Part shown: piece after piece, positions 26,264 to 64,000 of the stretch
Numbering within the stretch: position 1 is the stretch's first letter
Layout: every line of letters starts with the position of its first letter
Assembly: GCA_024233545.1 (NCBI GenBank)
Contig: JACKPL010000010.1
Span: 6,287-70,286 of the forward strand
Source: a bacterium
Lineage (GTDB): Bacteria > Auribacterota > Auribacteria > Auribacterales > Auribacteraceae
DNA length: 64,000 nucleotides
Direction of reading: 5' to 3'
The notes under the pieces: model-generated
Told to the model about the DNA's origin: nothing
What the model saw: only the letters and a program-made list of their open reading frames with translations
Database searches by the model: none
Made by a program: the position numbers and the translations under genes

Positions 26264-26288
26264 TATACTTTAAAGAGGGGAGATCAAA

Positions 26289-27101: not shown

Positions 27102-27123
27102 CTCTAAGCAGGCGAGGTTAGTT

Positions 27124-27540
27124 ATGGAAGTCGTCGAACGAAGAAATTTTTTTAGAGTACCTGTTGTTCTACCTGTTAAGTACAGCCAGTTCACTCCCAA
27201 TCCGAATGCCGATACATCATTTAACCGTGCAAGTATGCTCGATCTTAGTGGGGGTGGGATGCTTTTTGAAACACCTCGGATGATACAAATGAATGATTCG
27301 ATCGTTGTCCGGTTTTCATTGCCGTATAATGAAAAAAACAATGCGTTGCAGACATTTCATTTACAGGCATCTGTCATAAGAAGTTCATATGAAGACGATA
27401 AAAATATTTATAATTATGGTGTTGAATTTATAAACATTGCATCGCGCGTCCAAGATCGAATCATTAAGTTTTTATTCGATTTGCAAATTGCAGTTCAAAA
27501 AAATAAGTCTGCCGAATGCAAATTAAAACAAGCTGAGTGA
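27124..27540 (+). CDS. stand-alone PilZ-domain protein (putative c-di-GMP receptor)
   Basis: 138 aa with both PilZ motifs intact: RxxxR (RNFFR) and DxSxxG (DLSGGG). It starts 22 nt after the fliA stop. Confidence 0.85.
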   Translation: MEVVERRNFFRVPVVLPVKYSQFTPNPNADTSFNRASMLDLSGGGMLFETPRMIQMNDSIVVRFSLPYNEKNNALQTFHLQASVIRSSYEDDKNIYNYGVEFINIASRVQDRIIKFLFDLQIAVQKNKSAECKLKQAE

Positions 27541-27913
27541 TTTACTGCTATTCTTCGTAATAGTAATTCATTCCGAAATCGCAGAAAATTTTATTGATGT
27601 CCGAGCCCCTCATGTTTATCGAAAGCAGATTTTATTATCTATTTACTTCTCTTTGCAGTTTACTTGATGCAGTTATTTTATTGTGCTTAAAAATTGTTGT
27701 CACTTTTAAATTGCAAAATCTGTATTACAGTTGTATCATGCTTGAATGTTACTCAAAGTAATTGATTTTCCCTTGCAATAATGATGAAAAGATATTTTTC
27801 CGAGTACATAAAATCTTTAAGTTGTATACATAGTATAGTGGTTTACTAAGAATTCGATATAATATAGTGGTAAAAAATAGACAAAACCATGTGGAAGCTT
27901 TGGGAGATGCATA

Positions 27914-28822: not shown

Positions 28823-28887
28823 ATTCGTGCGGTTGCTTTATTTTTTACCTCACTGCTATTCTCAAAAAGTGAAACGTAATTTTTATT

Positions 28888-30384: not shown

Positions 30385-30403
30385 AGCAGGCAAATTTGAA
30401 TAC

Positions 30404-30433
30404 AGGCCCTGGCTGAGGTTCAGTCCAGGGCCT
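30404..30433 (+). terminator. strong GC-rich hairpin 20 nt after the TolC-like stop (terminator-like, no U tract)
   Basis: AGGCCCTGGCTGA-GGT-TCAG(T)CCAGGGCCT: 13 bp, one bulge, 3-nt loop. It stands out in AT-rich DNA. It is followed by ACGCATACC, so it is not a canonical intrinsic terminator. Confidence 0.4.
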
Positions 30434-30504
30434 ACGCATACCGTGATAGTATGGCTGTGTGTATGATTACATCAGTCCATCAACGAATCAGGTTGATTTC
30501 GGGA

Positions 30505-30518
30505 AGCGGCATGCCGCT
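30505..30518. promoter_or_regulatory. perfect 14-bp GC-rich palindrome AGCGGCATGCCGCT next to a TATAAT hexamer
   Basis: Self-complementary with no spacer. TATAAT at 30523-30528 begins 5 nt downstream. About 315 bp upstream of the giant ORF start. No well-spaced -35 (TTGATT at 30493 is 24 nt away). Confidence 0.3.
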
Positions 30519-30600
30519 ACGATATAATCATGTCTAACTTACCTTCTTTTTTTATTAAATGCAAACAGTTTATTCTAGATAAAACAGGCATGGCTTTTTG

Positions 30601-30623
30601 TTTGTATGTTTATAACATACAAA
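30601..30623. promoter_or_regulatory. 10-bp perfect inverted repeat TTTGTATGTT-TAT-AACATACAAA
   Basis: Arms at 30601-30610 and 30614-30623 with a 3-nt spacer. About 210 bp upstream of the giant ORF start. Operator-like or a small hairpin. Confidence 0.3.
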
Positions 30624-30834
30624 AAGATCGCAAAGACTGATTTTCCTGCTTTGGCATCCCAGTAAATTATGCTATAATTTGAATATGGAATAAACTCGGA
30701 AAATTAAAGAAAAAGCGTAAAAATTATATCATCTGTAACAAAAAGTCCGGATGAGGTCCCTTTGCGTCTATTAGGATTATTGTATTATGAACGTTATTTT
30801 TTAAAATTAACATACTAAATGGAGTTGTACTGCC

Positions 30835-30951
30835 ATGAACGGAAACAACAAAATTAAATTTTTTTCTATCGCGCCGGAGGGGAAAAAATTTAAGAGAATA
30901 CTCAGTTTACTGTTAATTGAGTCTCTCGCTTTTAGTTCGGTCGCTTGGGCG
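30835..30951 (+). other. Sec-type signal peptide of the giant protein (predicted cleavage AWA/DE after residue 39)
   Basis: MNGNNKIKFFSIAPEGKKFKR (basic n-region), ILSLLLIESLAFSSV (h-region), AWA|DEEK. Confidence 0.6.
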
Positions 30952-39900: not shown

Positions 39901-42900
39901 CGAGGCCAACAGCAAGTGGCAATTGACCCGCGGTCGGGATTGCCGATTCGCCAGAAAGACGGTTCATTGGCAGGTGAAGCAGTGCGCTATGAAAGCGAAC
40001 GAGTTTTTTCATTATCCTATATGCAGGGCGACCCGCAGATCGGCGGGTTCAGTCTTGTGCGTAATAATGAAGGTGATGCGACGAGGCTTGATTTGCTGTC
40101 TCGTGCTGAAAAATGGATCGGTCCGTTATCACAGGGTGAAATGATAAACGATGAAATCGTTGGCAGAGACGAGGTCTATGTTTTATCTAAAAATGGGACT
40201 CCTGTTGCGTTAATCAAAGCGCGTGATGAAAAAGATACGGTTATTCCGCTTGTCTCTTCAATAGAACTCATACGAGTGCTTGGTGTTGAGTCCCATGAAG
40301 AAGCAATGCAGGAACTGAACACAATGGCAGAGAACCGCCGCGTTAAAGTTCGCGAAATTGAACTGAAATATGCTGAAAGACAAACGGCATATGAACAGCA
40401 ATCAAGAGAACCTGGCAGGACAGCTCGGGTTACGTTGGCGTCTATGGCGGGTTTAATGTTACTGCAGACATTAAGCGGATGCGCAACATCAATGGGGCCG
40501 CGCCCTGATTTGCCTGTGGGCGATGTGTCTTACCAGCCGCCAGTTGTACCTGATGACGGTTCTCCCGTTACGGATATTTCACGGTATACTGGCGTAACCG
40601 ATACGCAACCTAGTTTTCCTCAAGCCATATTGTTTGATGCACAGCAAGGTGGTTTAGACCTTTTGAATAAAGCATTAACTGCCGCTGAAAACGAGCTTGC
40701 CGGCCTTGAAAAACATGGGGTTGTAAACTCTGACCGCGCAAAAATTCTCAAAGACCGGATTGGTGTTCTCAGAGACCGAATTGCAAGTTTAAGCTCATTG
40801 CCCACAACTCAAATTCCTCAAATGGAACCTGATACTCGCAGAACTTCTCAGCAGTCCGGGCAATACGTCGACAGGCAAGTTGATCGAACCGGTGTGGTGC
40901 AAGGGCAACCCGATATTGTCTTTCCTCCTCAGCTTGCATCGGAACTGCAAAATATTCTTAGCGCTCAGGAATATAAAACGTTAATGGCAGATATTGTGAA
41001 GTTTAGTGTAAATCAAACTATAGATGCAGGCAGTCCGGCGTTTACTGGAGATAAAAAGTTTGATGGTTGGGTACGGAGCTATGATGGTGACGAGTCCGAT
41101 AAGGATTATCCGTTCCTTGCAAAACCGGGAAGGGTGTTTGGGTATGATCAATCACTCAGCGTCTATGCGGATATAGCAAATAAGGATTATGCAAAAGCAA
41201 AACGAAAAGTCGATGCTCTTTTCCGCATAATGGAATATGAAAGAGGGCGAGGATTAGATAGTGTTATACGGTTTAGTTATAATACCGATGGGACAGGATA
41301 CGAGGCGGCTCTTTCACCGATGGGAAATACGTCGTGGGTACTTAAATCAATCTTTGCGTATATGGATGTAACTAATGACCGGTCGTATTTGTCAGGAAGG
41401 AATGGTGAACTACTGCTTGCATCTATGCGGTATGTTCTTGATAAACAAGTGCTTGATAGAGCGGATGTGCGGTACGGTTTGTTTCAGGGCGGGTCTAAAC
41501 CGACAATTGTAGACGGCAAAATTCAGAGTATTCCAATGGAAGTTGTTTTTTCTGAACACAACGCCGATGTGCATGACCTCTTGAACCTTGCGTATCGCGT
41601 TACCGGTATGCAAATTTATAAAGACAGGCGTTTATTGCTTGACCAGCAAATGTTGCGCACTCTGTTTGTCGATGATGCACGCGGTACTTATTTTAAGCCT
41701 AATCTTGACCGGTCAGGAGAAACAAAACAAGGTATTGCTATTGACAACCTTACATGGGGAGGCAGTATGGTTTTAACCATGGATCACCTTCCTCTCGCAA
41801 CCCGGCTTGACATTACTCGAAAACTGATAAATCACATAAGGAATAATTTTGCAGTCGAACATGTTCCGGGACAACAAGAAGCAAAACCGGTTGCATTAAC
41901 GCCAAGTTTTGTTGCGCAACGAATCGCTAAGCCATCAAATGCGGTGGTCGGCTTGAAATTTTTTGATGAGGTTTTTAGAGATGATTTTCTTACCCAGCCG
42001 ATTGATTGGGATTCGCCTAATATTATGTCCGTACAGTTCGAGGCAACTATTGGTTATATTCATCTCTTAATTCAAACTGCGTACCTTACATCTGATTCTT
42101 CTGAGCGGGCACAATTGATCAATGAGGCGAAGTTCTTGTTTTCTAATATTCAGAAATTTCACGCGGGAAACTCAAAAAAGGGAGGGATTTCTTATTCTAC
42201 CCGCCCGATAACAGGCATACAAACATCTTTGGAATCGCTTGTTGCGTCTGAAACACTGCGGACACTTACCGGCATATGGAGCAATCCCGATTTATTATGG
42301 ACGTTCATCGGAGCATCCAGTCAATCGTTGCAAGGCGATAAAACAGTCCAGCCGATTGACCCTAACCTTAACCCAATAAACGCGGTCATCTTAGGAACCG
42401 ATGCGAAACCGGATATTCTCAGCCAAAGCCTGCAAGGGCGTGTACCGGAAAAAGTTACACCGGCTGGAACCGTTGTCATTGATGCGCGTACGCAAACAGC
42501 AATTCATGCTGAAAGCCAATATGGAACCGTAGCAGTTGGAACCGCTGAAGACACTTCCGTTTCGCGAGTTTTCAGGGAAGATTTTGCATGGGTTGTTGAT
42601 TTTCTCCGAGGGTTAGGTGAAAAACCGGATTTGTCGCCGCAACAAGTGCAGAAATGGAATAACACAATTCTTAATCCAATCAGTTGGCAGGCAGATATAT
42701 CTGCAATAGCCCCGCTTAAAAGATTAGCACAAAATACGCAATATTCGGCAACGATTGAAAAGGGCAAACTTCGTATTCTCGTTGAACATCCGATTGCCGC
42801 GGCGCAATTCAGGGGCGTTGAATTTAAAAATGCCGGCGATAGATTTGAAATAACAATCATTGGGAATGAAGTACGAGTCAAAGCAACATTAAATGCGGCT

Positions 42901-45900
42901 GAATATGAACGGTATAAAGATATGTCCGATGTTACTCAACGAATATACCGTGATTTATCTGCTCCGGCAGTATTTAAACTGAGCGATTTTCCAAGCCTTG
43001 CAGGATATGCGGATCAATCCGGAAAACCAGTCGTGATACAAGCGCGGCTTGATGCGTCGAGGCAAAATCTTTTAGTAGAAGACAAACAGCCGAGCATTGT
43101 GGTAAATGCCGCATCAATTTTCGGAAATCAGTTTTTTGCGCCGGATAATCAAAAGTTTACGCTTTCTATTGATGGGAGAAACCGTCTGAATATTACAGAA
43201 AATACTGATTTAGGTTCAGTATTCCAAAATCCGTGGTCACCCAACATTCCGGCTGAAAAATTACCGCAAATGTTTGCGGCATTGCGTGCATCAGGGCATA
43301 CAGCGATTTATGTGAATACGGATCCGCTAGTCTATAAAAATACAATTCATGGCACAAATACACGCCGTTACTATATGGCAATGATAGAACTTGCTCGCCG
43401 CGAAGGTATTAAAGTGTTTGCTGTACAAGGAAGCAGTGATTGGGTAACAGTTTCCGGTGTATCTGATGCATTGCTTTTTGTTGATGAACTTGGAAAGAAA
43501 CAACTCGATTTTGATGGTTATGTCTTGGATGTTCGCCCTGAACGCATGAAAGATTGGAATACCTATAATGATCAAGATAAAGATATTTTTATCCAACGGT
43601 ATTCTCGATTGATGGAAGAGTTACGGCAACGGCTTGCATATTATGCCGGTGGGCAGAAAGAAATTTTTTCATATGTATCGCCGGATGTCGAATCGCGTAA
43701 AACGTATCGGTCTCCTAAGGAAGTTAGCGATGTGCTCGTCATGCAGCATACAAGTGTTACAGATATCCTTGCTCAATTACAGCAATATGATCCTCAGCGT
43801 CCGTTTCAGCTCTATATAGAAACAAGTTTATTAAACGATCCGTCGCGGACTTTTGCACTAAAAGAAGCGGAAATGGCTTCAGTTTTACGCGATTTGGCAA
43901 AAAGTTTACGTTCAAACCCGAAATACGGCGCCCTGTTTAGAGGGTTTGTTGTAAACCATGATACCGGCGAAGATATTTTACACGTTCTTCAAACGGGAAA
44001 AGGACGCGGCGCCGGTGATCGAATGGAAGACAGTATCTATAAAGCGCCTGACGGCGCAGTACATATTACCGGCAATATGTACCAATTTATCGTAACGGGA
44101 GGAAAACCTGAAGTAGTGCCATTGGGAGCTGATAGTCCTTCTGCTCAACAAGAAACAGTGCGTACGATTCGTTCCCGCCTTGAAGCGATAGCGCGTGGTA
44201 TCACCGGCGCTGGAAATATTGATCATATGGCGCGGAGTGTTATCGAGACTATTCGGCGTGATAAAGTAACTGTCATGTCAGACGCGCCTCCATTGGGAGC
44301 TGAAATCGGGTCATTGATATCGTATTCAAATATTCTTTGGGGGCAACAATATACTGATTTGGGTCAAATCAATAATGTTAAGATTGTTGGTGTGGATGAA
44401 AGCGGTAAAACTGTCGCAGAATGGCATGACCTGATTAACAATCCTGTACCGATCGTTGTTGGGATTCACAGTAAAATTGTAAAATTAAAAGTTCAGGTTG
44501 ACGTTAAAAGTGCAGATACTGCCGGCAAAGTATTTCCGGGTTATATTGCTTTCCTCACCCATCATCCCGGAAGCGGCGGTGTTGTGACAGAAACTGCATC
44601 TGATGAATTTATTCTTAAACAAGGCGAAGGAAGAACAATTGCGTTTGAGGTCCCTGTAAGCCGTGAAGGTTTTAACAATTACAGTATCATGCTTTTACAT
44701 GGTAAAAAATTCAGCAAGTCTGAGGCAGTGGTCGATCAAGTTGGGTTTGCTCAACGGTTCAGCATCGTTGAGCACTGGATTAAAACACATGCAAGCGGTT
44801 TCCCTGAATTTTATCGAGATGCAATTGTCAATGATGTTAATTCTCAGATCAATCAAGCCGGAGTGTTCTCTGGTGTGGTAAAAAGCAGAGTCGTTGTTCA
44901 GGATTTTACCATTGATGATTTTACCGTTGCCAAAGGCAGAACCATTGCAAACCTTCTTGCGGCATCCGGTATTACCGAGTTAACGCTTGATGGAGAAAAA
45001 CTGCGGCAACTTATTTTGCAGAGCCCTAACGAAAATCTTGCGAAAAAGCAAATTGCGGATTTTATGAATCTGATTACGGAACAAAATATCAGATTGGTTT
45101 TGATGGTCGGTAATAGGTCATGGTTGGATTCCCTGAACGGTAAACAAAATATGCAGAATGACCTTAACGCTATTTTTCGCATGAAACTTCCTTTCAACTC
45201 TGTAGTGTTGAACCTTGGCGATAACATTGCGGCGGCATATGATATCCTTCCCGAAATCCAACGATTGGCATCAAATGAGGGGCTTGCAGATAGCCAGTTG
45301 CGTCCGGTTGAAGTATATGATACCACCGATTTACAACCGGTACCGCCTGCGCGTCAACAAACAGTGCGGTTAGACAATGCGTTGCAGAATCTGATAGATA
45401 CGATGCGTTCAGCTGAAAATTTACAACAGCTTCGCGACGATTCTCGGTCGTTTGTCAATACCCAGCAAGTAAAGCGCGGGCTTTTCCGAGGAGCGGTAAC
45501 AGGCTATGATGCTAACGAAAAACATCCTCAGTATGGATCGGATGAATACAAAGCATTGATACAATTTGGAAGAGTAAACCCGTATGACGTATCAGTGAGC
45601 GTTTTCGCCGATATAAATAATGGCGATTACCGTTCAGCGCGCACTAAAGTACGTTCATTGCTTAGAGTTATCCAATCTGAACAAGATAGCGGGTTTAACG
45701 GTGTTGTTCATTTTTGGTATAATACTGACGGCGATGAGTCTGTATCGGGGATTGCACCGTTAGGAAATACTGCATGGACACTAAAAGCGATTTTCGCATA
45801 CATCGATGCAACCGGCGACCGTTCTATACTTGAAGGGAAAAGCGGCGAATCGTTGCGTAAATCTTTGGATTTTGTCTTATCGCAACAGGTTACCGATTCC

Positions 45901-48900
45901 AAGGATCCGCGTTACGGGTTATTTATGGCTGGGTTGCGCCGTAATGTAGATGCTTCGGGCGTGGCGATTGATAAGTCTGGACGCCCGATTCCCAAAGGAG
46001 CTCCTGCCGTTTATAATCAGATGGGGCATGTGGTTTTTGAGCATCAGGCAGACGTTCATGACCTTTTTAATTTAGCCGCAAGAGTTTTGACGGATAGCCA
46101 AGATACGCAGAAACGAACCGCAATACAATCCGCTCGAAAATTGCTTGACCGTGAAGTTATGTCCCGAATGTTTGTCGATGCTGGAACAGACGGAGCGTTT
46201 TTTATCCCCAATCTTAACGCTGACGGTACACGGGGCGTCGGAGAAGCAATTGACGACCTTACGTGGGCGGGAAGCATGGTTCTAACGATGGATGAAACTC
46301 AGCTTTCACAAACCCAGAAATTGCAAATTGTCCGCCGCATGATCGCTTATATAAATAAGAATTTTATCGTCGAGCATGACCCAAATGTTGAAAATGCACA
46401 AAATGTTGCTCTTACACCTGCTCTCATTGCTAACCGGTTATCGCGTCCAACAACGACAATAATCGGCACAAAGTTTTTTGATGCAAAATTCAAAGACGAA
46501 TTTGTCCCTGAAAGGAATTGGGATGACCCAAAAGTTTTGTCTGTCCACGTTGAAGGAACACTTGGATACATTAACCTATTGTATCAAACAGCATTATTGA
46601 CACCTGACGCGAATGAACGCGAACAGTTGTTGCGTACGGCAAAGTTTTTACTTGATAATATAACAAAATTAAAAAATGCAAAATCTACTAATGGCGGTAT
46701 ACCGTATTCAACACGAGCTATCTCTGAGATTCAATCGACATTTGATTCCACAATTGCAACAGAAACATACAGAGCGTTAATGGGTGTGTTTTCTAATCCT
46801 GATCTTGCGTGGAGTTTTATCGGTGTGCGTGAAGCATCGTTGCCGAGAATACCTACGGTGCCGACTATTCCGCAAACAATTCAAACTTCTCAAGATGTCC
46901 TAAATTCGCTTCGTACGGGATTGGACATAGCTCCATTGCCGTTTACTAATTTCAATTCACTGCAAAATGTCCTGCAAAGCATTCCACAGGCAGATTCGGA
47001 TGCATTGTCGGAACGGGCTCAATTGGTAACTGAACAAGACCTTGAACAATACGTTGATATTGGTCTTTCAAAGTTATCTCGCGTTGAACGGTTGTTAATG
47101 GGGTTTTCCCGTGTAAAGCGCTTGCCCAGAGTTCAGTTGGGAGAATCGGCCGCCGAAGTGGATTTGGTTACTTCAAGAACTATTTTTGTCGGAACCGATA
47201 CAGCACCGTATGTTACCGTTAATATTGAAAATACCGGAAATCTGGCGGTAGGTGCCTTTACAGCTATTGTTGAATTACGCAATACGGTAACAGGTGAGCG
47301 CAAAGAAATTGCATTTCCTATTCTCATGCGGCAAAAAGAAGCGCGGCAAATTAACCTTCCGATCGAACATCTTGAAGCAGGGCAGTGGCGGTATGATATT
47401 AGCGTTGTCCCTGAATATTTTCAGAGAGACCGTTCTTTTATCCCGTCAAAGCCTTTAACAGTTGGGGGTACTACGGTAAAAGTTGGCCAATGGGACTTTA
47501 CAGCGTTTATGCCCGGTGAAAAAGGCGAACCGCAAAATGAACGAACAGTACGGTTTCAAAACTATGAGTTTCAGCTTATCGAAAATTATGGGCCTAATAA
47601 TGCCAATGCAGTTCGGTTCTATGATGAAAAAGGCGTACCTCAAATTAAAGTTCTCACTGATAGGCGCCAAGGGGTCGATTTTGAGTTCGGGCCTTCCCGC
47701 ATTAGAGTCAATGTGAGTAAAAATTCGTTTAATGAATGGGCAATTGATGTTGGCGGCGAAGAAGCGACCATCGCCCGTCTTCATAGCGGTGAAGAAGTAT
47801 TAACGGTGGGTGTCCCTCATAAAGCCCGAATATTCGGCTATATTCAGAAAGGGTTACCCAAAATCCAAGTTACCAATATTGAGGTTGATACAAAAAAACG
47901 CTACTTAGAAGATACGGTATCGCAAATTATTGACTTAGAGTATAATAAAGAATACAAACTGCAGGGGCATACACTGGTATTTAAAGGGCACCCTAACGAT
48001 GAAATGATTCAAATTCAGGTAACTGCTCCTGACGGAAGTATCGACCGGCGAGTATTTCATCGCGATTCCCCCCGAAGAGTTGTTGAGTTAGATTCTCATG
48101 TATTTATTTTTGGAAACAATGCTGATGGAAAAACCGTGGGTGTTATTTCAAGGGTGAGCAATGTAACATTCACTTTTGATGTAACAAATGATGGCGACAG
48201 CCCGCTACGGTATCAGCCGGAACTGACCTTTTATCATCCTCTTGTTGGTGAAGTGTCTCTGCCCGGAAGGGTGCAGTATACGATAAACCCCGGAGAGACA
48301 AAGCGCATAAGCATGGATGGCCCTGTCCCTGCAGATATCCTTGCAAAAGAGAAAGAACGCCTGCTTGATGCTCTGTCAAATGCCCGTTTGCTTCAGGAGG
48401 AATATGATAACTTTTATATTGAGAAAAGAAGAGAAATCGATAGCGGCGAACGTCATAGGAGTATTGTTCAGGGTGAACTACAAACACGCCAAAACCAAAA
48501 TAAAATTAAATTGGCTGGATGGTTGCGCGATTCGATTGCCCTGATTAAAGAAGTGCAGAATAAACATCTTGTCCAAGAAGCGTTTATTGCGTACCGGCTT
48601 GATTTAAATGCGCGAATTGCTCAGTTGCAGAGTTTGATTTCAAAAATTGAAGACCCTAAACTTTCGCAAGAGGAATACGGCGTTTTATCGATTCAGATTA
48701 TTCATACAATGAATATAGTAATGGGTGATTTGAATGATTTGTCCACGCAGAAAATGGGATATAAAATATCTATCCATGACGTATCGAACCTACTTGGCGA
48801 AAAGGTTTATTCGCGCGGATTGTCCGGTGCTCCCGGAGCTACAACACAACAACCGGTAATACGCGATGTTGTTGTCGAACCTGTATTGGTTAAAACCGAA

Positions 48901-60900: not shown

Positions 60901-61722
60901 AGTTACAAAACAGCCGCTCAAGTGGGTAAAGGATTTAGTGTATTGCATGGTTTGCAGTCTTTATTCAGCCACCCGATTTTTACTTATGGTGCGAGTGATG
61001 AAAAGCAGATGAATTGGCAAGAAGTGATGAGTAATGTATTCAATTCGAAAGCAATGAAACGTGATGAGATTGCATACGAAGGAGCTGGGCGAGGTTCAGG
61101 CTGGATTAATTACATTATTTTTGGATATACCTTGTATGGGCACCTTGCAAAAAGAATAGGCGCATTTCCTCCGGGCGTTGGGCAGGCGGTGAGGCAAATT
61201 CAATATATTCAGGAGTTGAATAACCAACTTGAAGGCGATGGGCGGCTCCTTAAAGTTATTAGGTATCTTCAAATTACCAGTAAGACGCCTATTTTAAATG
61301 GGTTAAGCGGTGTTGATTTCCGTCTTGCTGTATCAATTGCCAAAGGCCTTGAACAGATAACTGTTGCGGGAAAAACACCGGATATGGTTTTAGATGAACT
61401 GATTCAGGAAGCCTTAAAAGATTATATGCGGGGATTGAATGAAACGGAACTTGCGAAAGCGCGTGCCTTGTTCATTGCTGGAAACAATTTATTCGGACAA
61501 GATATTCCTATTCCTGAAGAGTTTGCACAGAAAGAAATAGCACAAGAAAGACCTGCGCAGACGGAATCATTTGAAGATGCTGAACAAATCGGAAAAGACA
61601 AAACTGGTCAAGATCAGCCGGAACCTTCACGTGAGAATGATGAAAAAATGCATTCTATTGTACAGCGGCTTGAAGAAAAGGTTTTACTCCTGAACAAATT
61701 GAATCTATTCAAAATAATATAG
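30835..61722 (+). CDS. giant secreted/membrane-associated multidomain protein, 10,295 codons as annotated (probably longer, see 61674-64000); function unknown
   Basis: A single open frame of 30,888 nt. All other frames across it are fragmented into ORFs of under 260 codons. GGAG lies 10 nt upstream of the ATG. N-terminal Sec signal. The sequence is protein-like and non-repetitive, with internal paralogous modules, coiled coils and TM clusters. Confidence 0.9.
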   Translation: MNGNNKIKFFSIAPEGKKFKRILSLLLIESLAFSSVAWADEEKGITSDTLKIPNTLGAVQERYAGETDSLVIHIQDTHTSYSAQKYLSHILRFLHDSYDTSLIGIEGASGIIDTSEFSRFPDKEIKKKVSEYFLKSGKIDGTEYFSIVENSGDGVDVYKIRGVEVDVLYRSNLDAFLRSIPYQEKLTVFCDTYQENLNQLKAKIYSPLLYQFDNLVQEFHRNELNFVVYCQGLLHIAEENLIEYDKLENLTRLVSVIDLESKINFPRVDAERYIAVRRLSGKLPESESSDLLAREFNFRTKKVTPEEYHFYLNEVFKKNDFSIDEFQNLKNYIEYLSSFSQIDRSKALAETQLLAKSIYDTLIVSNDQRTLYELSYFVYLISKFSNLKMTREEIALYHSYRQKYSCESIREFIQHAMNNYAVTVTDNFNLAEVEENLSHFEEFYKVAHQREQSIVKNTLGLMKQENQDTIVLIAGGFHTPGITEMLQKEAVSYVVVTPNMENDPASIPYLSLLQNFQTPLEQMIATNTSTLKIASWLADQPLVYGDRAEVLKTKLKLLLSTTALHKEWMNTMAQYSREEQAALGYRLETQLAQAVNNVIQIAGYQDVLHVNSVSMGIGGRDFSANVTIQGAGAIDVSFSDQVQGGTVVEDIQDNILEVIQFSDGITTHIMSQIGSSRLAQNFALIRTVILHSVYSTPKTTDEILADIQSALPDTSVTMAELKVYLNDFRSMGVLVEDTEGRFAVTSNLNQRLAAFLAQSLIVRQAGSNDIQTSRIRRENVPAELASLLEGLEISTLIIDPTISLSSLENFLSRLTEGEFNGQIQPGAVIQLSDTLQGIVTRPIDSAEYIFAIMRKPAESEEIGTVSKNIQSSFELSDRSLAAQRSGSDSLVIDLLRNEFGRNLGVSNDEGLVLELSTRLGDGEKSVLRTYILDRISDDQEVRQQLAKRINSLLRVKEELEGRFTGRVARIIIGNSYPAQFDQAVQVITQINPDFAITREIEEQINAALIQLHGSNKRGDYLRYDLWQSIINTALASAPEAVRNSRFNQAVQKTVAEIQEIQQKEDGKPAGLEEFQRIINKHLAALELRAGSIDENKPLLHQTAQRQALLNRAIVEEHVLRFSSRSGEIELDVSVSNRTATNTYYAYDKATGNHYLITLLSLDEQGQEFVYSTANEQQQSDGTPYPGVTEDSSDAFYDASGFLVRRIEPQSVPRSKDVVREMQYRALQNQWERSLQTVPAGVIQASLSRRLTGVLEQNLEQSSLQEAAASYSENVGRHIANAQQQQQRLQREQVEQEEQLERLKREIETAKLELKNRANTVTARLNELEIQHVAYQKIIGRQDEVVGELLLDYISREMLRVMATRLYETGSIQGMNIVLAEWAGISGATDARLASILAQNPEKIHSLDFGRIFSREDVAALLNVLPEGIDSRLIDRFFPSVPSGRIVSKTTVDAVMKRLSQPQTAATFYNMLNDVLGIRNLERTLIPADPNRATVERQIQIIKNKISSYTNSTDARASLTASLAELDRAKEALKPVEVNGIAITAIEAQRRKELDEYPQIRNELINKINSLQETLRVATASLDTLQQRTNTELQAVNRRIQFLRTIQRALEGDTAPGRKPEWLFEGIRAKIERGDTTVRTVGMRRLKGDLPLTKDNLSAIVFGLAYNISINDQITAEQQGLPRQEIDEFAAVVKMAEQAFNENRDKAINRNQEQELAIQQSQVEIVSGGVRANLLVYGQDAANEFGQINNQANNVQVSSLMNRALQFLATIDPIIANAIKKQMRIVILQAPFYPSDEAKYQELLQIGRTTQTLYIEKAVFGRVMELLATNSGAAVRLMAASMAYAAQGTIFPETNVFDINQLTVEQLQQIITSRMERIGRPLDAQRAELIAGAIVQLRSRAPIRQVGDLEQLYGQLQMPELPLVFAVTQSYFNFNGTLKEPAYKLVASNKADILLGSSFTNFRRLLMVERQRYLEGMNLDEIPASLAATDVESLWSVVNNANVPVQHQYYVFLRRLFGTNFIPDQIFEAVSSFDPNSSAEEYVSYTQQLQKLLDNYIGEMTVSLKRATQQLNNRGTIDYVVTYPNGEQVQLSVYEYRQLMARMEHYAGQIQVYFQPGQGLGIMLRDGEKAPKRLPYLVRMNDEAAFLNQVLVQGRKRSFDELMLDSPYQQSLSVSVGVGVADYGSVQAGTSPQANYIQQRENAMQVRVLYETIAAYIQQKQPDIWQSLTLNEQKGLAALLAIQNNVDVSWVNLISNIYNEDISLSMTRRVQDIFSEWTSNDSLDVFVNALFDLLVIMGQSEWQNLAPASKQAVFQTVLNKYGDELSDQKHRDSLEVFFAQREPQAAESAPVLTAQDIQFLWMISDQEVKSSGELGIIQNELKRFSSLIEMRERALDERQTELDTLKTTDLKPEIQQTITTEEAQIGYETFLLNQLRMSVQHASSVSVVQAVDDFNKEFSGMMRIDASREFINQNPDTIRALIEFLRQPLEFDEQAHPDIVKIQQLLDQYSSVRSLWNSGQQEQAIEQLQALIGQIAEFLGTTQFLSGQPSLAQFEYDLDLLKNYVDGTEQDIRQIELFGGIGLLHKELLRRVPANLYIPALLAVPGYIAGNIVPVAGVTDIVISLKTAEFEPRQFDIFDELNRNRYRDEGIVYDQQTIFINTDRIDPQSETFFESVADTFVDSYISTSRKISNEIDALERAGLPADLRMYQFGAEALEKSGAPIRLENGFQARDIVLSGDNFGYSIPVALPPHKFEQLRQNQLAMMRLVQTYITQASLFVSEQSDFETARDFLQEAGRLATNLQLFSPVLVNNILNTIKRDLDDVEAQLKLAQGEPPADSILLYGGRSDIFKQNPILTDTPTVRRLLDGAFNNLASGLGEDVARDVRNRFSIVIGARPRENIPVNVIYISAAKFDMLRYLASNENTETTASILLARYLFDSYKNVPQLLSKIFLDQIAVSENALEKYLIPVQVNSTEPNRDYTGEVIIPHDIRYNQLGQPFANLSGRQTVTKFRNGQPVEVVNRGQQQVAIDPRSGLPIRQKDGSLAGEAVRYESERVFSLSYMQGDPQIGGFSLVRNNEGDATRLDLLSRAEKWIGPLSQGEMINDEIVGRDEVYVLSKNGTPVALIKARDEKDTVIPLVSSIELIRVLGVESHEEAMQELNTMAENRRVKVREIELKYAERQTAYEQQSREPGRTARVTLASMAGLMLLQTLSGCATSMGPRPDLPVGDVSYQPPVVPDDGSPVTDISRYTGVTDTQPSFPQAILFDAQQGGLDLLNKALTAAENELAGLEKHGVVNSDRAKILKDRIGVLRDRIASLSSLPTTQIPQMEPDTRRTSQQSGQYVDRQVDRTGVVQGQPDIVFPPQLASELQNILSAQEYKTLMADIVKFSVNQTIDAGSPAFTGDKKFDGWVRSYDGDESDKDYPFLAKPGRVFGYDQSLSVYADIANKDYAKAKRKVDALFRIMEYERGRGLDSVIRFSYNTDGTGYEAALSPMGNTSWVLKSIFAYMDVTNDRSYLSGRNGELLLASMRYVLDKQVLDRADVRYGLFQGGSKPTIVDGKIQSIPMEVVFSEHNADVHDLLNLAYRVTGMQIYKDRRLLLDQQMLRTLFVDDARGTYFKPNLDRSGETKQGIAIDNLTWGGSMVLTMDHLPLATRLDITRKLINHIRNNFAVEHVPGQQEAKPVALTPSFVAQRIAKPSNAVVGLKFFDEVFRDDFLTQPIDWDSPNIMSVQFEATIGYIHLLIQTAYLTSDSSERAQLINEAKFLFSNIQKFHAGNSKKGGISYSTRPITGIQTSLESLVASETLRTLTGIWSNPDLLWTFIGASSQSLQGDKTVQPIDPNLNPINAVILGTDAKPDILSQSLQGRVPEKVTPAGTVVIDARTQTAIHAESQYGTVAVGTAEDTSVSRVFREDFAWVVDFLRGLGEKPDLSPQQVQKWNNTILNPISWQADISAIAPLKRLAQNTQYSATIEKGKLRILVEHPIAAAQFRGVEFKNAGDRFEITIIGNEVRVKATLNAAEYERYKDMSDVTQRIYRDLSAPAVFKLSDFPSLAGYADQSGKPVVIQARLDASRQNLLVEDKQPSIVVNAASIFGNQFFAPDNQKFTLSIDGRNRLNITENTDLGSVFQNPWSPNIPAEKLPQMFAALRASGHTAIYVNTDPLVYKNTIHGTNTRRYYMAMIELARREGIKVFAVQGSSDWVTVSGVSDALLFVDELGKKQLDFDGYVLDVRPERMKDWNTYNDQDKDIFIQRYSRLMEELRQRLAYYAGGQKEIFSYVSPDVESRKTYRSPKEVSDVLVMQHTSVTDILAQLQQYDPQRPFQLYIETSLLNDPSRTFALKEAEMASVLRDLAKSLRSNPKYGALFRGFVVNHDTGEDILHVLQTGKGRGAGDRMEDSIYKAPDGAVHITGNMYQFIVTGGKPEVVPLGADSPSAQQETVRTIRSRLEAIARGITGAGNIDHMARSVIETIRRDKVTVMSDAPPLGAEIGSLISYSNILWGQQYTDLGQINNVKIVGVDESGKTVAEWHDLINNPVPIVVGIHSKIVKLKVQVDVKSADTAGKVFPGYIAFLTHHPGSGGVVTETASDEFILKQGEGRTIAFEVPVSREGFNNYSIMLLHGKKFSKSEAVVDQVGFAQRFSIVEHWIKTHASGFPEFYRDAIVNDVNSQINQAGVFSGVVKSRVVVQDFTIDDFTVAKGRTIANLLAASGITELTLDGEKLRQLILQSPNENLAKKQIADFMNLITEQNIRLVLMVGNRSWLDSLNGKQNMQNDLNAIFRMKLPFNSVVLNLGDNIAAAYDILPEIQRLASNEGLADSQLRPVEVYDTTDLQPVPPARQQTVRLDNALQNLIDTMRSAENLQQLRDDSRSFVNTQQVKRGLFRGAVTGYDANEKHPQYGSDEYKALIQFGRVNPYDVSVSVFADINNGDYRSARTKVRSLLRVIQSEQDSGFNGVVHFWYNTDGDESVSGIAPLGNTAWTLKAIFAYIDATGDRSILEGKSGESLRKSLDFVLSQQVTDSKDPRYGLFMAGLRRNVDASGVAIDKSGRPIPKGAPAVYNQMGHVVFEHQADVHDLFNLAARVLTDSQDTQKRTAIQSARKLLDREVMSRMFVDAGTDGAFFIPNLNADGTRGVGEAIDDLTWAGSMVLTMDETQLSQTQKLQIVRRMIAYINKNFIVEHDPNVENAQNVALTPALIANRLSRPTTTIIGTKFFDAKFKDEFVPERNWDDPKVLSVHVEGTLGYINLLYQTALLTPDANEREQLLRTAKFLLDNITKLKNAKSTNGGIPYSTRAISEIQSTFDSTIATETYRALMGVFSNPDLAWSFIGVREASLPRIPTVPTIPQTIQTSQDVLNSLRTGLDIAPLPFTNFNSLQNVLQSIPQADSDALSERAQLVTEQDLEQYVDIGLSKLSRVERLLMGFSRVKRLPRVQLGESAAEVDLVTSRTIFVGTDTAPYVTVNIENTGNLAVGAFTAIVELRNTVTGERKEIAFPILMRQKEARQINLPIEHLEAGQWRYDISVVPEYFQRDRSFIPSKPLTVGGTTVKVGQWDFTAFMPGEKGEPQNERTVRFQNYEFQLIENYGPNNANAVRFYDEKGVPQIKVLTDRRQGVDFEFGPSRIRVNVSKNSFNEWAIDVGGEEATIARLHSGEEVLTVGVPHKARIFGYIQKGLPKIQVTNIEVDTKKRYLEDTVSQIIDLEYNKEYKLQGHTLVFKGHPNDEMIQIQVTAPDGSIDRRVFHRDSPRRVVELDSHVFIFGNNADGKTVGVISRVSNVTFTFDVTNDGDSPLRYQPELTFYHPLVGEVSLPGRVQYTINPGETKRISMDGPVPADILAKEKERLLDALSNARLLQEEYDNFYIEKRREIDSGERHRSIVQGELQTRQNQNKIKLAGWLRDSIALIKEVQNKHLVQEAFIAYRLDLNARIAQLQSLISKIEDPKLSQEEYGVLSIQIIHTMNIVMGDLNDLSTQKMGYKISIHDVSNLLGEKVYSRGLSGAPGATTQQPVIRDVVVEPVLVKTEPQQVRRIGKAEYANVMSGIITPTVVDQRANAYVGEEMDYYNAFVQQSLLAESISRVQSFDLPTAKLAEETALENIVVATSDLDRTQSRDLIAVLFNSINKLKIADQRGGSTYILRHDTRVIGTEKVIYDASISAIEDLLAAIQADDSKVVKSDLSRFLTDLGQFFGFIQSDGATKAETIIRMKEFLKGEDPATIDRAVRVVEDIMVDGKRATRRDAVMIAMQVLVKEEVRERVKALAFEQLRTQLAQDRTYIPEVIRILSQANVGNDSRSMIRTLEREQNGRYSYYIKFVEQNKTKTLAELRERQAELAPIEAYLNLVEEHDRAKRLMDEAESIVKHNGDPVVQLQEVRRAFDRSMAFFLQIIEVQPNFSVITNLDQVIAKINASNLSAADKKHAVDTILAIKADLQKYTQLLERRKTALSAADTALQSRSEEIGKAEILLKRLTEISTNHDLFLKRNEQEAEKEFGRVQDALRQLPADQAIPLIQEMQRLHVRYLRNHVEALERATVERNRYQSIIQENQTLIQQLRQAIAQEDSDTRKRVMTSKLRLLQRDIYEATSRVAFDDWYIPELEKQISRMQNRIAQFNGAIVDLGGTPDRSIFDAQLKTTQTAARDARRFSDNLSGAVTLLNRQQTQLIGSLEELERKYNYTQQMRDVSREMPISAVLKDIHLIHNPESYIKFLQENGIKEIYIDFADLATREELEKLGSDALQPYNPNRVNTTDLHRVKLAGRVIQAANQNGMQVKILIKGQEEWGRGRWRFLFFSGEERPGTTVMKDLTKKLRLFQIHLFEHDISIDGFAVDFPPRVVDGKVDLDNYREARNTIGEILTEETDELMDGLKERIESLDEKGYVDRANRLRQILRQGPSAFTYEYEVFESPETARMINQYVMRNATPNERTEIFKGTPVLVPTRPVTSVTTESTIDMMQRVGSLPSVNHGLVIDWSGTAAQNRQEELPAILQKLNEHRKVSLRTGQPLGKVILGGDTTNVVDLQRNLNALGAVPLHALNLLETQQDVREAYQSRMREYTLGLRGQLDHLTEILEKEKAYRDTHEKVLGIVNQAVLQEGLVLELPAFLQADSGDFDQLRQRTQTVIKKLEQKLRPGTTFEELQELSNEIDTLYRDANIHVRRMRLSLNALLSPEGIAYGSATDPRGFLTGTSSVSLNLTNLISKAMPYVGVSLTVVGRDGKADQRDLLKESRELQREVQNLRQQALIFANFNSQIQTTDLQLQKDRTDIALLRRGVDIASKPDAQIAPIRVQIHQPLTIYIDGVRQNIPVGTHVIKGNVFTALKEIRALLLVMKDPSEKARVKAEGLEKAYDALRKAFTEIPTVKKGDSFIKKETKELVAVRSIDNARENLLQAESLLQQAQLGKQAAEATLEHAKLGMQDSDRLLKKAILDIQLAETGEKQAQKDAEDALKDLIKSLTGIDAAQRMHYSSQLGEVGTSIRLDQATDDLSKAYFNFDTIIHRLFRVFSQIGGPSAEDEFKQFFAAYRSGVVTEGFGLESVLGSGTPYLGIDDSKEASLAAELVGGAIRPFTISLYGGLFNIAWSPLNPQQVGFSMTYRPAEDSIVGKAQYNLLQRHAQHILGQMVTEDRREDVERATAHFGRMIESYQDAVIWANAMKEEKVKAEKRQQAAKDDLTRAELFLKNQQFELQRAEENLRSKQLGKIAAEASVDEIEREAADKITPAEGQGEFLNQGQPKVIDEAVDTTIDQKRDLSDAEIREQRVSSVLARLFYAVAGFILGLFTLDRNKRLFTRWKLSKQREAVQKGEGKRKGIMAALVQDFTFDRVTISKIIPFSGRRIVEMAKNQAQFKRVARLMRRYGVDSMAVVAEELKDAGKFVEEERLTYGSLFRSEKIKNLSLKQRWQYRTRLFLRLFRAQYDDLISSGKFKIFWGLLTIGLGIFVFPVVGFPTLPLKLLFSIPMLWGGDPLLSPILFLSDPTMILPWFFWVPFLYVLPRLLYNLVVMIPVTRSVLALLMFVGKGVAEYLGKKALFVMVPFLPVAAMFQKVVNGIFRRELISIRTFENAVEKAGQSIKKQTVSAIPKPIREAFDIRERRAGTGPEFSRQFSENAVALARQWAEENGLGPLEQMKKADAQKLINSFIIQETIKQTKHIVFQDEGNALRVNVGAEADELAISPGQFASMPAIYVPFFLPTKGHFNKWFWGIMIQNFTQSLQYAASMGARGLRGAERGANAKHKMFSHIVSKSELDIHSFLFMVQPRWLVGHLHVVREELVGGRIVIDLDFYDARELQDKQAPPGVEQWANVEDYVRYLIDRREEIDELDSETLAELFAKGGDIQINFPDGMPEDEKESIKQDMELRFKQLTSIAAGYYRAYPDEFNPFYGPGENVTFSGHFPDISPMDAADRFGLGSYEQDPTEGVFYARGNYFGGFNYAAGGVNVRGEDGNLSFEPTGEIVRVEYQQKEEHGKGKQKIPGSKATNLNAILLAIQGQTYITREVVRKEDGSAELNIQFKDAHEEFLPEVAEAREEFEEKSAGRDQAFRKGWWKSAKKRFVKVWDNVTKDYITVNLGTRLGFEPFAGLRGTLAKWKTLTLGAVIGVIPVSLYGNLQDPINAAMQSYYDPIVVEKVAQSTIYQNNKIYRKNVKKFAEDAHILDNQSVSLGQRSSSDTTEETYMFVPTNVLQENEESRLEFARALHALARNVGVHIPVELFEQNAELLTDSYQSLVTFFLAVEQQRLEQRRYAQGSIITSWEKGIAEKGAALVNTQEYIQRLSSLFPEKSTARQGLVFLASTVGNTEESMDITIHRSDIGTESRSFDMRALYKVGIYNRTSEKYTAAFNKIAGMTYHGSHDDNVHRSGALERQLGDRGREPIIRLGQERNALQGTRSWAMVSPRGPLGIYQITSMAKRIRNGQDNPVAVEFMRQLVEAANENGTLIDRIIIHDGNGNAPSSNLRDSANWKILVVSDSQNFLTNTKQLEPLFNQVVSAMKKRMSASSKQDFAPTLANVDVIHKDAFRTLEQFRVLTQDGNELDNYNERIQKANGSVVKRLKKSVFNLKVFLGITPQNQTNAVIDKIAGLFNQKKALEQQRAAMDAQVDAFITQEYYVPEGEEAQIADLKNAIVIQDNALQAQEAAFARLEAVNSAIAVAEKEKIAKEERLKSLRDQKKTLSEDIATLPRRYKQSMSEQKDAIRQNKSSISEQIAVLQTMLQTVESDSVWVTEQQSVAEESGIQNLIDAVSLEIQALDARKTALNQQIDSLKKQLDALNKEEQALASEQKAKNQDEIDTFQAEQRGAHQEYLSAFESQQTAIENHRQAFVVQQQNFELHVSFVTEPSKQVQKKIDQMRRSFTDQNRMFVEQQERVNTQSQQWRLQGELLSLRETPLQEQIDARNQRLSEINTELETLLPEIKTIAQSLEGYTKERAQALVDQKASFNEARKAFKEQQRIMQRMEKTGIPDEQREPFEAQKKAFENQMAAFEHQETFNRVNDAVKTVKQLFTRKNKRTTLFESFFPLEKDNVFYKLLISPLNYIVNHGLLGLAGAVVAAHATVGIVPAVTMLISALTAPLALMGVLSAITPAMIAAYLVVGVLFVSLYNDTMMKGVIGTLSVGAVVAALTTGIGPALGVGMSLLAAPFAIPGFVGLLSSVFIAGLAGFALGLIPVMAWTGLRNYTENISLFNSLRIISRAMDSPVVKDTPIKNKLGIVGAIKEMEFIDQGLGIDEANPNDPFPFRSIVRAIRDGSNLVKDTYEGTLDSANMIQRAVQHGITMEPSTVDEEYIVTSDASPQAVEGGFQEFNYNNTEIEPAVEEINDEFARQGRLMLDNLRRAANENPHELLRAVNDYITQRRLSEAPMGYETNYELATLDDIKALADLTRDLKNHGFIDVRIRAHRNDVKILGKIFGLNEKDAMDVLSGFWSEARWPVAIGVPFLPGTTKGRVRIAERGGTIEDARPIPLMSALLAFSEAPWLAGLSAFNILDTEADDPAYALAEDTKFGIMGVYNPPLYPNTPAISVHLKQYVEEQYERRLFGENSYKTAAQVGKGFSVLHGLQSLFSHPIFTYGASDEKQMNWQEVMSNVFNSKAMKRDEIAYEGAGRGSGWINYIIFGYTLYGHLAKRIGAFPPGVGQAVRQIQYIQELNNQLEGDGRLLKVIRYLQITSKTPILNGLSGVDFRLAVSIAKGLEQITVAGKTPDMVLDELIQEALKDYMRGLNETELAKARALFIAGNNLFGQDIPIPEEFAQKEIAQERPAQTESFEDAEQIGKDKTGQDQPEPSRENDEKMHSIVQRLEEKVLLLNKLNLFKII
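40417..40482 (+). other. internal lipoprotein-type signal (lipobox L-S-G-C, Cys3216) inside the giant ORF
   Basis: RTAR-VTLASMAGLMLLQTL-SGC followed by the Pro-rich spacer SMGPRPDLPVGDVSYQPPVVPDDGSPV. Confidence 0.5.
41058..42310 (+). repeat. paralogous module copy A (putative (alpha/alpha)6-barrel, glycosidase-like)
   Basis: Collinear with copy B. Shared blocks: YNTDG, GNTxWxLKxIFAYxDxTxDRS, RYGLF, EHxADVHDLxNLA, IDxLTWxGSMVLTMD, VALTP, GGIxYSTR, SNPDLxWxFIG. Confidence 0.7.
45475..46825 (+). repeat. paralogous module copy B (putative (alpha/alpha)6-barrel, glycosidase-like)
   Basis: See copy A. Protein-level similarity only; the DNA has diverged. Confidence 0.7.
54097..54940 (+). other. 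first transmembrane-helix cluster of the giant protein (1 + about 5-6 helices)
   Basis: LARLFYAVAGFILGLFTL; IFWGLLTIGLGIFVFPVVGF; LLFSIPMLWGG; ILPWFFWVPFLYVLPRLLYNLVVMIPV; VLALLMFVGKGV; ALFVMVPFLPVAAMF. Confidence 0.6.
59400..59805 (+). other. second large transmembrane-helix cluster (about 6 Gly/Ala-rich helices)
   Basis: GLLGLAGAVVAAHATVGIVPAVTMLISALTAPLALMGVLSAITPAMIAAYLVVGVLFVSL...GTLSVGAVVAALTTGIGPALGVGMSLLAAPFAIPGFVGLLSSVFIAGLAGFALGLIPVMAW. Confidence 0.6.
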
Positions 61723-64000
61723 GGCATTTAGGTATATCTGACCGAATAGGTGCGTTACAGAGTATTTTAGATGCAGTTGATCAATCCGCATTATCGGTTA
61801 AGAATGCAGTTACTGCGTTACAGCAGTTTCGTTATACAAAATCTGTACCGCGTTCAATTGTTCGCAGAAGTTTTGCTCGGCGTTTGCTTGGGCGCATTTT
61901 TAATCTGGGTATATTAGCAGGATCAGTATCATTGTGGGGGTGGTGGGCAATCGTTATGCCGCTCATGCTTATTATTACTGAAACAATCGGGCAATATCGA
62001 GGGAATGTAGTCCGTCGTGCTCTCCGCTTGGTTGTTGGTGCTGGCGCGGCTTCAGCAATGGTATTTCTTATGGGCGGTGCTCTTTCTATTCCTGCGGTAT
62101 TGTTGCTTACCGGTTATGTGCTTGGTGGAGAACGGGCGGCAGATTGGCTGTTGTATTCGATAGATCGTGTTCCTATTATTAGTATGTTAACGTCGAATTT
62201 TATCAACAATCGCTTATCTCGAATTTCAAACGCCCGGGCTTTGCGTAATCTTACTATAAGAAGGGATGTTATTGCTGAAGTAGTGGAAAGCATTGGTACT
62301 CGTGCGCGCGATCAGAAGGAATTTGAAAGAATGTTTACTCAGCGGATAATATTGGATTCGCTTGAGCAATCATTTAAAGACCGTTTACGGTCGTATTATA
62401 GAGATGTATATGGGGATGATGCTTCGGTTATCGAGTCTCAGATTGAACAGAGCCTTTCTAAGTTTGCTGTTGACCAACGGCTAAGAATTATACGCAAAGT
62501 GTATCAACGCGTTAATAATCCTTGGATGAAGTTTTCGCAGATGTTTACCCATATGATGAGCCGATTGAAGCCGGGCGATAAATTGGAATATGAGGGGCGG
62601 TTGGGTTTTATACGCACATTATTTTCAAACCGTACTAAAGGGAAATTGTTAGGATTGGCAGGTGTAGCAACTGCAGTTGCAGGGCATATATTTTTGCTTG
62701 GTGTTTCTTTAAATCCCTTGAGTATAATGGGCTTGGCAATGTCTGTTTGGGTTGTTCTATTCCTTGGGACAAAAACCTTTGAACAAACTTTTGGTGCTGT
62801 ATCGGGTATTTTACTGCCTTTAATTCATATTTCATTATATGGGATGTCTGCGTCTTTTATGCCGTTGGTTGTCATTATTTCTGAAGTTATTGTTGGATAT
62901 ATGGTCGGTTCAACGGCGGGATTATTATTAAAAAATACTGCAGAGATTCTGTATAATTTCATTATCAATCCTCTCATTGTTCGTCCGTTTAGAAGTTTTG
63001 GAGAGATAATGAGAATCCGCAAGAAAAATGATATAACTCGCCAGCGATTATTGATAGCTTCAGTTGTGCCGTTAATTGATGAAGCAGACAGCGATTTGGA
63101 ATTTATTTCAAAGTTCGATAAACTCTTCCTTGATACATTAGATGAAGCAGACCAAATTGAATTAGGTGAGCCCGGTCTTCCCAGTGATGATGAAGGACCA
63201 GGTGTCCCACCGGGCACCACCCCTCCGGGCGGATCACCTTCGCCGACTGATGTGGAACCTGTTACACCCGTCATCGAGCCGAGCGAACCGGTATCTCCGG
63301 TGCCTCCGATTGAAGAAACACGTTTGCCAGAACCGCCAATACAGAGTCAATTACCTGAATCTGTTCAGCTGATAGAGCAGGTGGCGAAACCAGTGGTTTC
63401 TGAAGTAATCCAAGCACCAACCGATGGCATCATAGCAACAAATGATTCTGTGATTGAAGAACAAGCGGTTGAGAGTAAAGATGCAGTTGCTCCAGAACCT
63501 GTAGCACCTCCGGTAGTTGTAGAACCAATCAATAAGAAATTTACCGATTTTGCTTTACGAATTGGCTCTAACCTTGGATTGACCGTTGAAGAAATGGAGT
63601 TTCTCGCCTCAGCAGTGCGTGAAGCGACAAAAATCCGCAACAAGATAAGCGAGCCGCTTTTTAATCGAGCTCTCGAGCTTGTAGATACAATAGACCGTAA
63701 AAAAACGGCATTAACAATCAAGCAGTTAAAAGAAGTTCATCAAGCGCGCGTCAATCAACTTCAAGAACTCGAAGAGTTGGGAACGATAACGCTACCCCAA
63801 CAATTACAGCTCAACAGACTGCGCGATGGTTCTGTTATGGTCCAATTTGCTAATATTTCATCCGCAATAGCAAAAAACAAAAAAATGGAAATATTTGATT
63901 TGAATCAAACTATTCCCTTAACTGAAACCGGATGGATTTTAGAATTAATGGATGCAAAATTAAAAATTATCCAAACGGTCAGGGATACTGAATATCGAGA
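61674..64000 (+). CDS. continuation of the giant ORF in the -1 frame (or a start-less downstream gene); open to window end
   Basis: Not in the ORF track. I read codon phase (position mod 3 = 0) by hand from 61674 to 64000 and found no stop. There is no ATG or GTG in the first 94 codons, and the first ATG (61956) lies inside a TM helix. The translation is protein-like (GFTPEQIESIQNNIGHLGISDRIGALQSILDAV...), with TM clusters, a Pro-rich linker and a coiled coil. Confidence 0.75.

Follow-up and report, generated by a model that had tools for sequence, protein, structure and literature searches.

Here, we analysed a stretch of 64,000 nucleotides (nt) from contig JACKPL010000010.1 of GenBank assembly GCA_024233545.1 (positions 6,287 to 70,286; hereafter the window), in which a giant open reading frame (ORF) of 10,295 codons occupies positions 30835–61722 of the forward strand, from ATG 30835 to a terminal TAG at 61720–61722. 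An earlier note on this DNA had proposed that 61722 is not the true end of the ORF and that coding continues in the -1 frame. Our results agree: ten related lineages read through the corresponding site and the motif at the junction is conserved. The giant ORF is the N-terminal 84% of an ancestral gene that encodes a 12,179-residue multi-pass membrane protein, and we are confident that this is one gene interrupted by a non-programmed break. We consider the break an ordinary frameshift and not a new decoding mechanism, programmed slippage being unlikely.

The two frames overlap from 61674 to 61722, i.e. by 49 nt and not by the 47 nt reported previously. A TGA in the -1 frame at 61671–61673 (forward strand, like all features given below) sets the upstream limit for joining the frames, and the downstream-frame codon GGT at 61680–61682 aligns with a Gly common to the six closest orthologues but absent from P0008, a more distant relative. 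Since this codon is the shared Gly, the join must lie between the TGA and position 61681. This places it in the shift window AGAAAAGG (61674–61681), where the 0-frame codons read CTT GAA GAA AAG GTT and one added base gives ..LEEK-GFTPEQ... Two insertions had been suggested as capable of fusing the frames. An extra A in the A4 run (61676–61679) withstood the comparison, giving ..EEKGFTPEQ.., whereas an extra T in the following T4 run did not, as Val would then replace the Gly of the six orthologues. A third option absent from the earlier note, an extra G in the GG at 61680–61681, restores the same protein as the extra A. One base is thus absent from the shift window, where the ancestral sequence was GAA GAA AAA GGT or GAA GAA AAG GGT; as a result, the 0 frame enters 13 junk codons and TAG 61720, and real coding continues one base back for 1,897 codons. 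The resulting tail, VLLLNKLNLFKII followed by TAG (61681–61722), consists of 13 residues without counterpart in any orthologue, and its description as out-of-frame junk was thus appropriate.

Six orthologous loci (L001/L005, L002, L003, L004, L006 and L007) were compared across the junction; L001 and L005 represent one assembly (100% identical over 8,808 nt) and were counted once. At L002, L003, L004, L006 and L007, one open frame ran from the edge of the locus, at least 10 kb upstream, across the junction equivalent, and at L001/L005 the frame ran across the junction from ~4 kb upstream, except for one in-frame TGA ~350 codons before it. Before the junction, the giant ORF followed these orthologues collinearly within a single frame for at least 3,300 residues (41–56% identity), and the orthologue stops fell 1,498–1,578 residues past a VAIG(I/V)PF motif. 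A conserved motif straddled the junction itself, reading IVQRLEEK before it and GFTPEQIESI after it in the window, and VISDLLAEGYTQADIDEI, IIEELKEQGYTQADIDEL, LIDQLKELGYTQADIDEV, VINELRSLGYSQSDIEDI, IIDELIAQGFAQTDIDSI and IINDLIVHGFRQNDLDSI in the orthologues. With one base restored, LEEKGFTPEQ aligned column for column with LLAEGYTQAD and LKEQGYTQAD.

Four further lineages, represented by proteins P0005, P0006 (on locus L014), P0007 and P0008 (on L013), were recovered by a HMMER scan of 1.84 billion representative proteins, and in each the junction equivalent lay inside one polypeptide (at residues 2585, 419, 5443 and 431, respectively). Overall, 10/10 related lineages, comprising Candidatus Auribacterota and unclassified relatives, read through the site in a single frame, and no gene boundary was observed at the junction in any lineage examined. 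The comparison with orthologues that had been recommended as a check therefore has a uniform outcome: none ends here, and one ORF continues across. The closest relatives of the giant gene were found in Candidatus Auribacterota metagenome-assembled genomes (MAGs), including Ca. Auribacter fodinae SURF_26, in unclassified MAGs and on metagenome contigs. A word-indexed protein search missed P0004 and P0011, which are identical to the query, and in a second search the 41–45% identical P0001, and its absences were not used.

Three of the related loci showed irregularities of their own. At L001 4244–4246 (= L005 4509–4511), an in-frame TGA stood at a conserved Trp that is encoded by TGG in the window and in five other close orthologues (context 'DMLGSY*SEAEWPVAIG' as compared with 'DVLSGFWSEARWPVAIG'); candidate explanations are a nonsense mutation, an erroneous base and a codon read through as Trp. 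At L013 (GCA_964451165.1, CAYVGJ010000004.1), the giant gene was cut at ~9873–9972 by a scaffold gap of 100 N, the flanks of which repeat the same ~55 nt, and the frame upstream of the gap was open throughout the 10 kb fetched; the apparent Met start of the 2,029-residue P0008 is an artefact of this gap. At L014 1–15380 (ENA ERZ21862206 contig_31), the gene was distributed over ~16 consecutive same-strand ORFs of 43–451 residues in addition to pieces of 5,865 and 1,291 residues, a fragmentation that is the signature of an indel-ridden assembly.

Past the TGA at 61671–61673, the -1 frame was stop-free to position 64000 (775 codons from 61674 or, as previously counted, 773 from 61680), and over 61680–64000 it had 0 stops, the other two frames having 52 and 57. 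The openness of this frame far exceeds chance. The continuation of the gene (61680–64000) comprises 773 complete codons in the window and 1,897 codons in total including those beyond it, and shared ~40–44% identity with an orthologous protein across ~500 residues. The fused length within the window is 10,282 + 773 = 11,055 codons, which matches the lower bound of ~11,055 codons, with the 3' end outside the window, that had been proposed before.

The true stop, a search for which the earlier note had suggested, was read from a contig of a second MAG (GCA_020440625.1, contig JAGRNQ010000106.1; L012, which carries P0011). The DNA of this contig was 100% identical to window 61748–64000 (2.25 kb), and its protein was identical over 1,812/1,812 comparable residues (~5.4 kb of coding sequence). 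The stop is a TAA at window-equivalent 67,371–67,373, 3,373 nt beyond the window edge, which adds 1,124 further codons and brings the fused protein to 12,179 residues. The last 630 of these aligned end to end with the C-terminus of the orthologue P0001 (E = 1e-94). On the contig of the window (108,659 bp), the GenBank protein of the -1 frame is MCP5463131.1 (P0004, 'hypothetical protein H7A34_08230', 1,813 residues), which matches the frame identically from TTG 61932 on and reaches 1,124 residues beyond the window edge; P0004 and its cluster-mate P0011 came from the full HMMER scan. Position 1 of L012 corresponds to window 61748, 68 nt past the junction, and contigs of the second MAG are only 4–8 kb long. 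Given contigs of this size, the start of L012 near the junction could be a coincidence; alternatively, it could hint that a variant at the junction broke the assembly graph.

As the earlier note had stated, the downstream frame makes a poor independent gene. Its first start-type codons are TTG 61884 and TTG 61932, and its first ATG, at 61956 with no GTG earlier, is preceded by 94 codons and lies inside the first hydrophobic helix (61911–61976). No start codon stands ahead of the first 68 conserved codons or, in that frame, ahead of the tryptic peptide GFTPEQIESIQNNIGHLGISDR, and the orthologues have no boundary at this point. The annotated start of MCP5463131.1, TTG 61932–61934, falls inside the conserved first transmembrane helix with a weak AGGA 9 nt upstream, so that the GenBank model omits 84 conserved codons, and TTG 61884 (68 codons in) has no Shine-Dalgarno sequence. 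An AlphaFold2 model based on a two-sequence alignment (mean predicted local distance difference test score, pLDDT, of 61; local pLDDT 77–83) predicted a small helical unit spanning the junction (61630–61784; helix, K-G-F-T turn, helix, helix) and put the junction in the turn of this helix-turn-helix-helix unit. A Foldseek search with the junction model returned nothing significant.

Regarding the cause of the break, three possibilities had been raised: an undercalled homopolymer, a genuine recent frameshift and -1 ribosomal slippage. We retained the first two, while slippage was the least supported, with no heptamer, stimulator or conservation at the site. We lean slightly toward a one-base indel left uncorrected in the consensus of the assembly, a tentative preference to which we would give just short of an even chance. 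If the break is an artefact of this kind, normal translation probably yields the full-length protein in the cell. Single-base indels have been found to end giant genes prematurely in assemblies, with adjacent giant ORFs being merged on curation (West-Roberts et al. 2023, bioRxiv 10.1101/2023.11.21.568195), and of three other cases in which this gene family is disrupted in a public assembly, two were demonstrable artefacts (the L013 gap and the ERZ21862206 fragmentation). Moreover, ~4.4% of possible substitutions in the downstream frame would create a stop, and its 1,897 codons are stop-free; thus, any real break must have been followed by less than ~1.2% neutral divergence.

Several observations weigh against an assembly error. 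Over window 25,016–35,170 (~10 kb, 99.82–99.97% identity), there was no gap relative to four independent public assemblies, and the agreement with the second MAG was complete in both the 2.25 kb of DNA and the ~5.4 kb of coding sequence compared. Longer homopolymers were intact in the region of the giant gene (85 A5, 28 A6, 5 A7, 1 A8, 54 T5, 16 T6 and 2 T7), and since all of them are in frame, systematic homopolymer undercalling is excluded. An A4/A5 or G2/G3 run is also an atypical site for such an error, and a second frame break was not seen anywhere within the 64 kb of the window. The organism is present at over 99.8% identity in the public runs SRR12358675, SRR12358676 and SRR27544760 and in the reads underlying ERZ27248703. 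No literature naming the run and the assembly accessions was found.

A genuine, very recent one-base deletion, which would make the gene a nascent pseudogene or a strain-level variant, is quite possible without being probable, and only slightly less likely than the artefact. It would leave a 10,295-residue protein from which the last two transmembrane clusters and the 1,897 C-terminal residues are missing; save for background slippage, the tail would go untranslated. Zero indel differences from independent assemblies over ~15.6 kb and the ~190 longer A/T runs intact in the gene favour a deletion, as does the TGA at a conserved Trp in L001/L005, a substitution being an atypical assembly error; from this nonsense substitution it follows that real disruptions of such a very large target may occur. 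A deletion is harder to reconcile with 1,897 downstream codons that contain no stop and are conserved at the level of the orthologues, and with the documentation of two other splits in the family as artefacts.

Around the junction (61560–61880, alignment columns 337–426), positions invariant in the six orthologues were lost in the window lineage more often than elsewhere. The losses were L>D, E>M and I>V before the junction, and Q>P, D>Q, N>S, P>S, W>Q, F>Y and A>S after it, and a lineage-specific acidic insertion of 20 residues lies just upstream of the junction. A test for relaxed constraint past the junction gave a weak local signal (p = 0.02–0.05) that was present on both sides. The loss of conserved residues near the junction (12/19 in the window relative to 19/20 in L001, p = 0.02) would weakly favour a real deletion; however, the rest of the post-junction module keeps 0.84 of invariant positions, the same as L001, and the excess divergence extends to both sides of the junction. 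It is therefore not specific to the part that would be untranslated and discriminates neither cause.

We consider it unlikely that the locus is a stable pair of genes in which, following a real frameshift, the C-terminal module, started at TTG 61932 (or TTG 61884), forms its own membrane protein of ~1,810–1,830 residues working with the truncated giant protein. This arrangement corresponds to the GenBank annotation of MCP5463131.1 from TTG 61932, which has the weak AGGA ahead of it in a window in which some genes have no Shine-Dalgarno sequence at all, and the first 68 downstream residues have diverged somewhat beyond expectation. Against it, a gene boundary at this position occurs in 0/10 related lineages, initiation at TTG 61932 would cut the conserved first transmembrane helix, and the 84 codons ahead of that TTG are still open and still alignable. 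The break also falls inside the small predicted helical unit, and promoter-like matches around the site were at chance level. Re-initiation after TAG 61722 was rejected in view of the 162-nt distance to the nearest start-type codon, which has no Shine-Dalgarno sequence.

It is highly improbable that programmed or rescuing -1 ribosomal frameshifting operates on A_AAG (61677–61680). According to this model, the Lys-tRNA would move from AAG to AAA and then read GGT, yielding 10,295- and 12,179-residue products in a set ratio. The tetramer is in the correct 0-frame register, the slip gives the conserved ..EEK-GFT.., and nothing interrupts the downstream frame. In Escherichia coli, no other tetramer is as prone to shifting as A_AAG when a pseudoknot follows, and only then is A_AAG efficient; tetramers without a stimulator gave ~0.15% frameshifting relative to a background of 0.11% (PMC4066793). 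At this junction, however, A_AAG is left automatically after a one-base deletion from AAAAAGG or AAAAGGG and, being a by-product of the deletion, is not independent evidence for slippage. There is no X_XXY_YYZ heptamer (the 0-frame site is A_GAA_AAG), the 120 nt at 61681–61800 folded no better than shuffled sequences (z = 0.25; 109/200 shuffles at least as good), and 61650–61672 contained no Shine-Dalgarno-like or GGAG-like stimulator. In addition, the orthologues are in frame with unrelated codons, e.g. GAA CAG GGC TAT, and have no slippery or homopolymer sequence at the site.

A combination in which a real deletion and low-level, rescuing slippage on A_AAG yield a minor full-length 12,179-residue form with its C-terminal transmembrane module beside the truncated 10,295-residue form, perhaps as a lineage-specific control of their ratio, would likewise be very surprising. 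Transcriptional slippage, which needs runs of ~8–9 A or T, was rejected since the site is only A4. The notion that the long open -1 frame is a non-coding, chance or compositional effect can be discarded given its 0 stops as compared with 52 and 57, its identity with an orthologue and its orthologous C-terminus.

The downstream frame contains hydrophobic segments and a Pro-rich linker, as the earlier note had described. A hydrophobic helix, ILAGSVSLWGWWAIVMPLMLII, at 61911–61976 is conserved in the orthologues; a hydrophobic segment, VVGAGAASAMVFLMGGALSIPAVLLLTGYVLGG, at 62031–62129 and a cluster of hydrophobic helices at 62646–62930 follow. The Pro-rich linker at 63165–63362 is largely missing in P0001, with a 15-column alignment gap opposite GLPSDDEGPGVPPGT. 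Hydrophobic clusters in the fused protein fall at residues ~7755–8037, 9525–9650, 10396–10426 and 10606–10693. Within the last 1,897 residues, there are two transmembrane clusters as well as a C-terminal domain that is conserved. Compared to P0001, the window species has ~740 extra residues in its C-terminal part (P0011 residues 507–1245; window-equivalent ~63,270–65,480), and P0011 residues 754–835 have a short internal similarity to P0001 residues 1054–1136. This resemblance suggests that the extra segment may be a diverged partial duplication.

No Pfam family was matched in the window-encoded giant protein, the downstream ORF or P0001, the lineage-specific insert of ~740 residues not being scanned. 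NCBIfam gave no match on four selected segments, and PDB sequence searches gave none either for the C-terminal alignment across the junction or for one paralogous domain. That domain is one of two paralogous domains of ~460 residues encoded at window 41059–42357 and 45484–46869 (45% identity, E = 1e-131), neither of which had a Pfam, NCBIfam or PDB sequence match. A low-confidence AlphaFold2 model (pLDDT 60) bore a weak resemblance to glycoside hydrolases and sugar epimerases of the (alpha/alpha)6-barrel type (Foldseek E ~4e-3, TM ~0.4), and the two domains may be carbohydrate-active-like. We define the Auribacterota-type giant membrane protein family by orthology; the fused protein was collinear with its members over thousands of residues, and the C-terminal transmembrane module and terminal domain were part of this homology.

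Upstream of the giant gene, the window carries a flagellar cluster (FliF, FliK, FlgE, FlhA, FlhF, a MinD/FlhG-like ATPase and a sigma factor), a response regulator and, directly 5' of it, a gene for a TolC-family outer-membrane protein (MCP5463129.1, 28888–30384). The 450 nt between the latter and the giant gene (30385–30834) contained no ORF of at least 70 residues and no Rfam match, and an Rfam search of the whole window likewise gave no match. Past the end of the giant gene, the next gene in both the window species (L012 5767–7461) and L013 (16249–17934) is a conserved same-strand gene of ~560 residues, which encodes a TPR and transglutaminase-like (Transglut_core2) protein unrelated to the giant gene. 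In the three other loci that were checked (L004, L005 and L007), the first genes past the giant-gene stop were on the opposite strand.

GenBank currently lists the tail as a coding sequence of its own, MCP5463131.1, and the 10,295-residue ORF is presumably a second one, judging by accession order, where the biology is almost certainly a single gene with 12,179 codons. When one indel splits such genes, catalogues of giant proteins count too few of them and give them wrong sizes. A corrected 12,179-residue gene model, a narrowed position for the missing base and a warning about the public annotation are thus useful outputs of this analysis. If the deletion is real, a giant gene would have been caught just as it was being inactivated. 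The family of proteins deserves more attention than the frameshift: it is conserved in at least 10 Auribacterota-like lineages, and its ~12,000 residues contain no recognisable Pfam domain.

Among known systems, the protein resembles the giant, transmembrane-rich proteins of the PVC group (the 'Archaeovorins' of Omnitrophota and large proteins of Auribacterota relatives; PMC12057145) in exceeding 10,000 residues, in coming from a lineage of the PVC superphylum and in having several transmembrane clusters and, at the N-terminus, a hydrophobic segment. Unlike Archaeovorins, it had no HEAT, glycosyltransferase or epimerase, SecA-like or C39 domain (Pfam on the whole protein, NCBIfam on four segments), and its 12,179 residues are below their cut-off of at least 30,000. 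The junction shares with programmed -1 frameshifting of the dnaX and IS3/IS911 type (Sharma et al. 2014, PMC4066793) a -1 shift, an A_AAG Lys codon in register and a 0-frame stop soon after, but not the heptamer, the hairpin or pseudoknot, the upstream Shine-Dalgarno-like element or, across ten lineages, a conserved shift. As in a frameshifted pseudogene, both halves match one continuous ORF of a relative, the tail is out of frame and there is no downstream start; in contrast to one, the 1,897 downstream codons show no decay, and any lesion is younger than ~1.2% neutral divergence. The locus also resembles the indel-split giant genes described by West-Roberts et al. (2023), which also end prematurely ahead of a long same-strand ORF in another frame and are also merged by one restored base, and the same family is split in the L013 and L014 assemblies. 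The present case differs from them in having one break in ~36.5 kb, at a short A4/G2 run, with agreement with independent assemblies otherwise. The splitting of a giant gene by an indel is, in any case, an already known kind of event.

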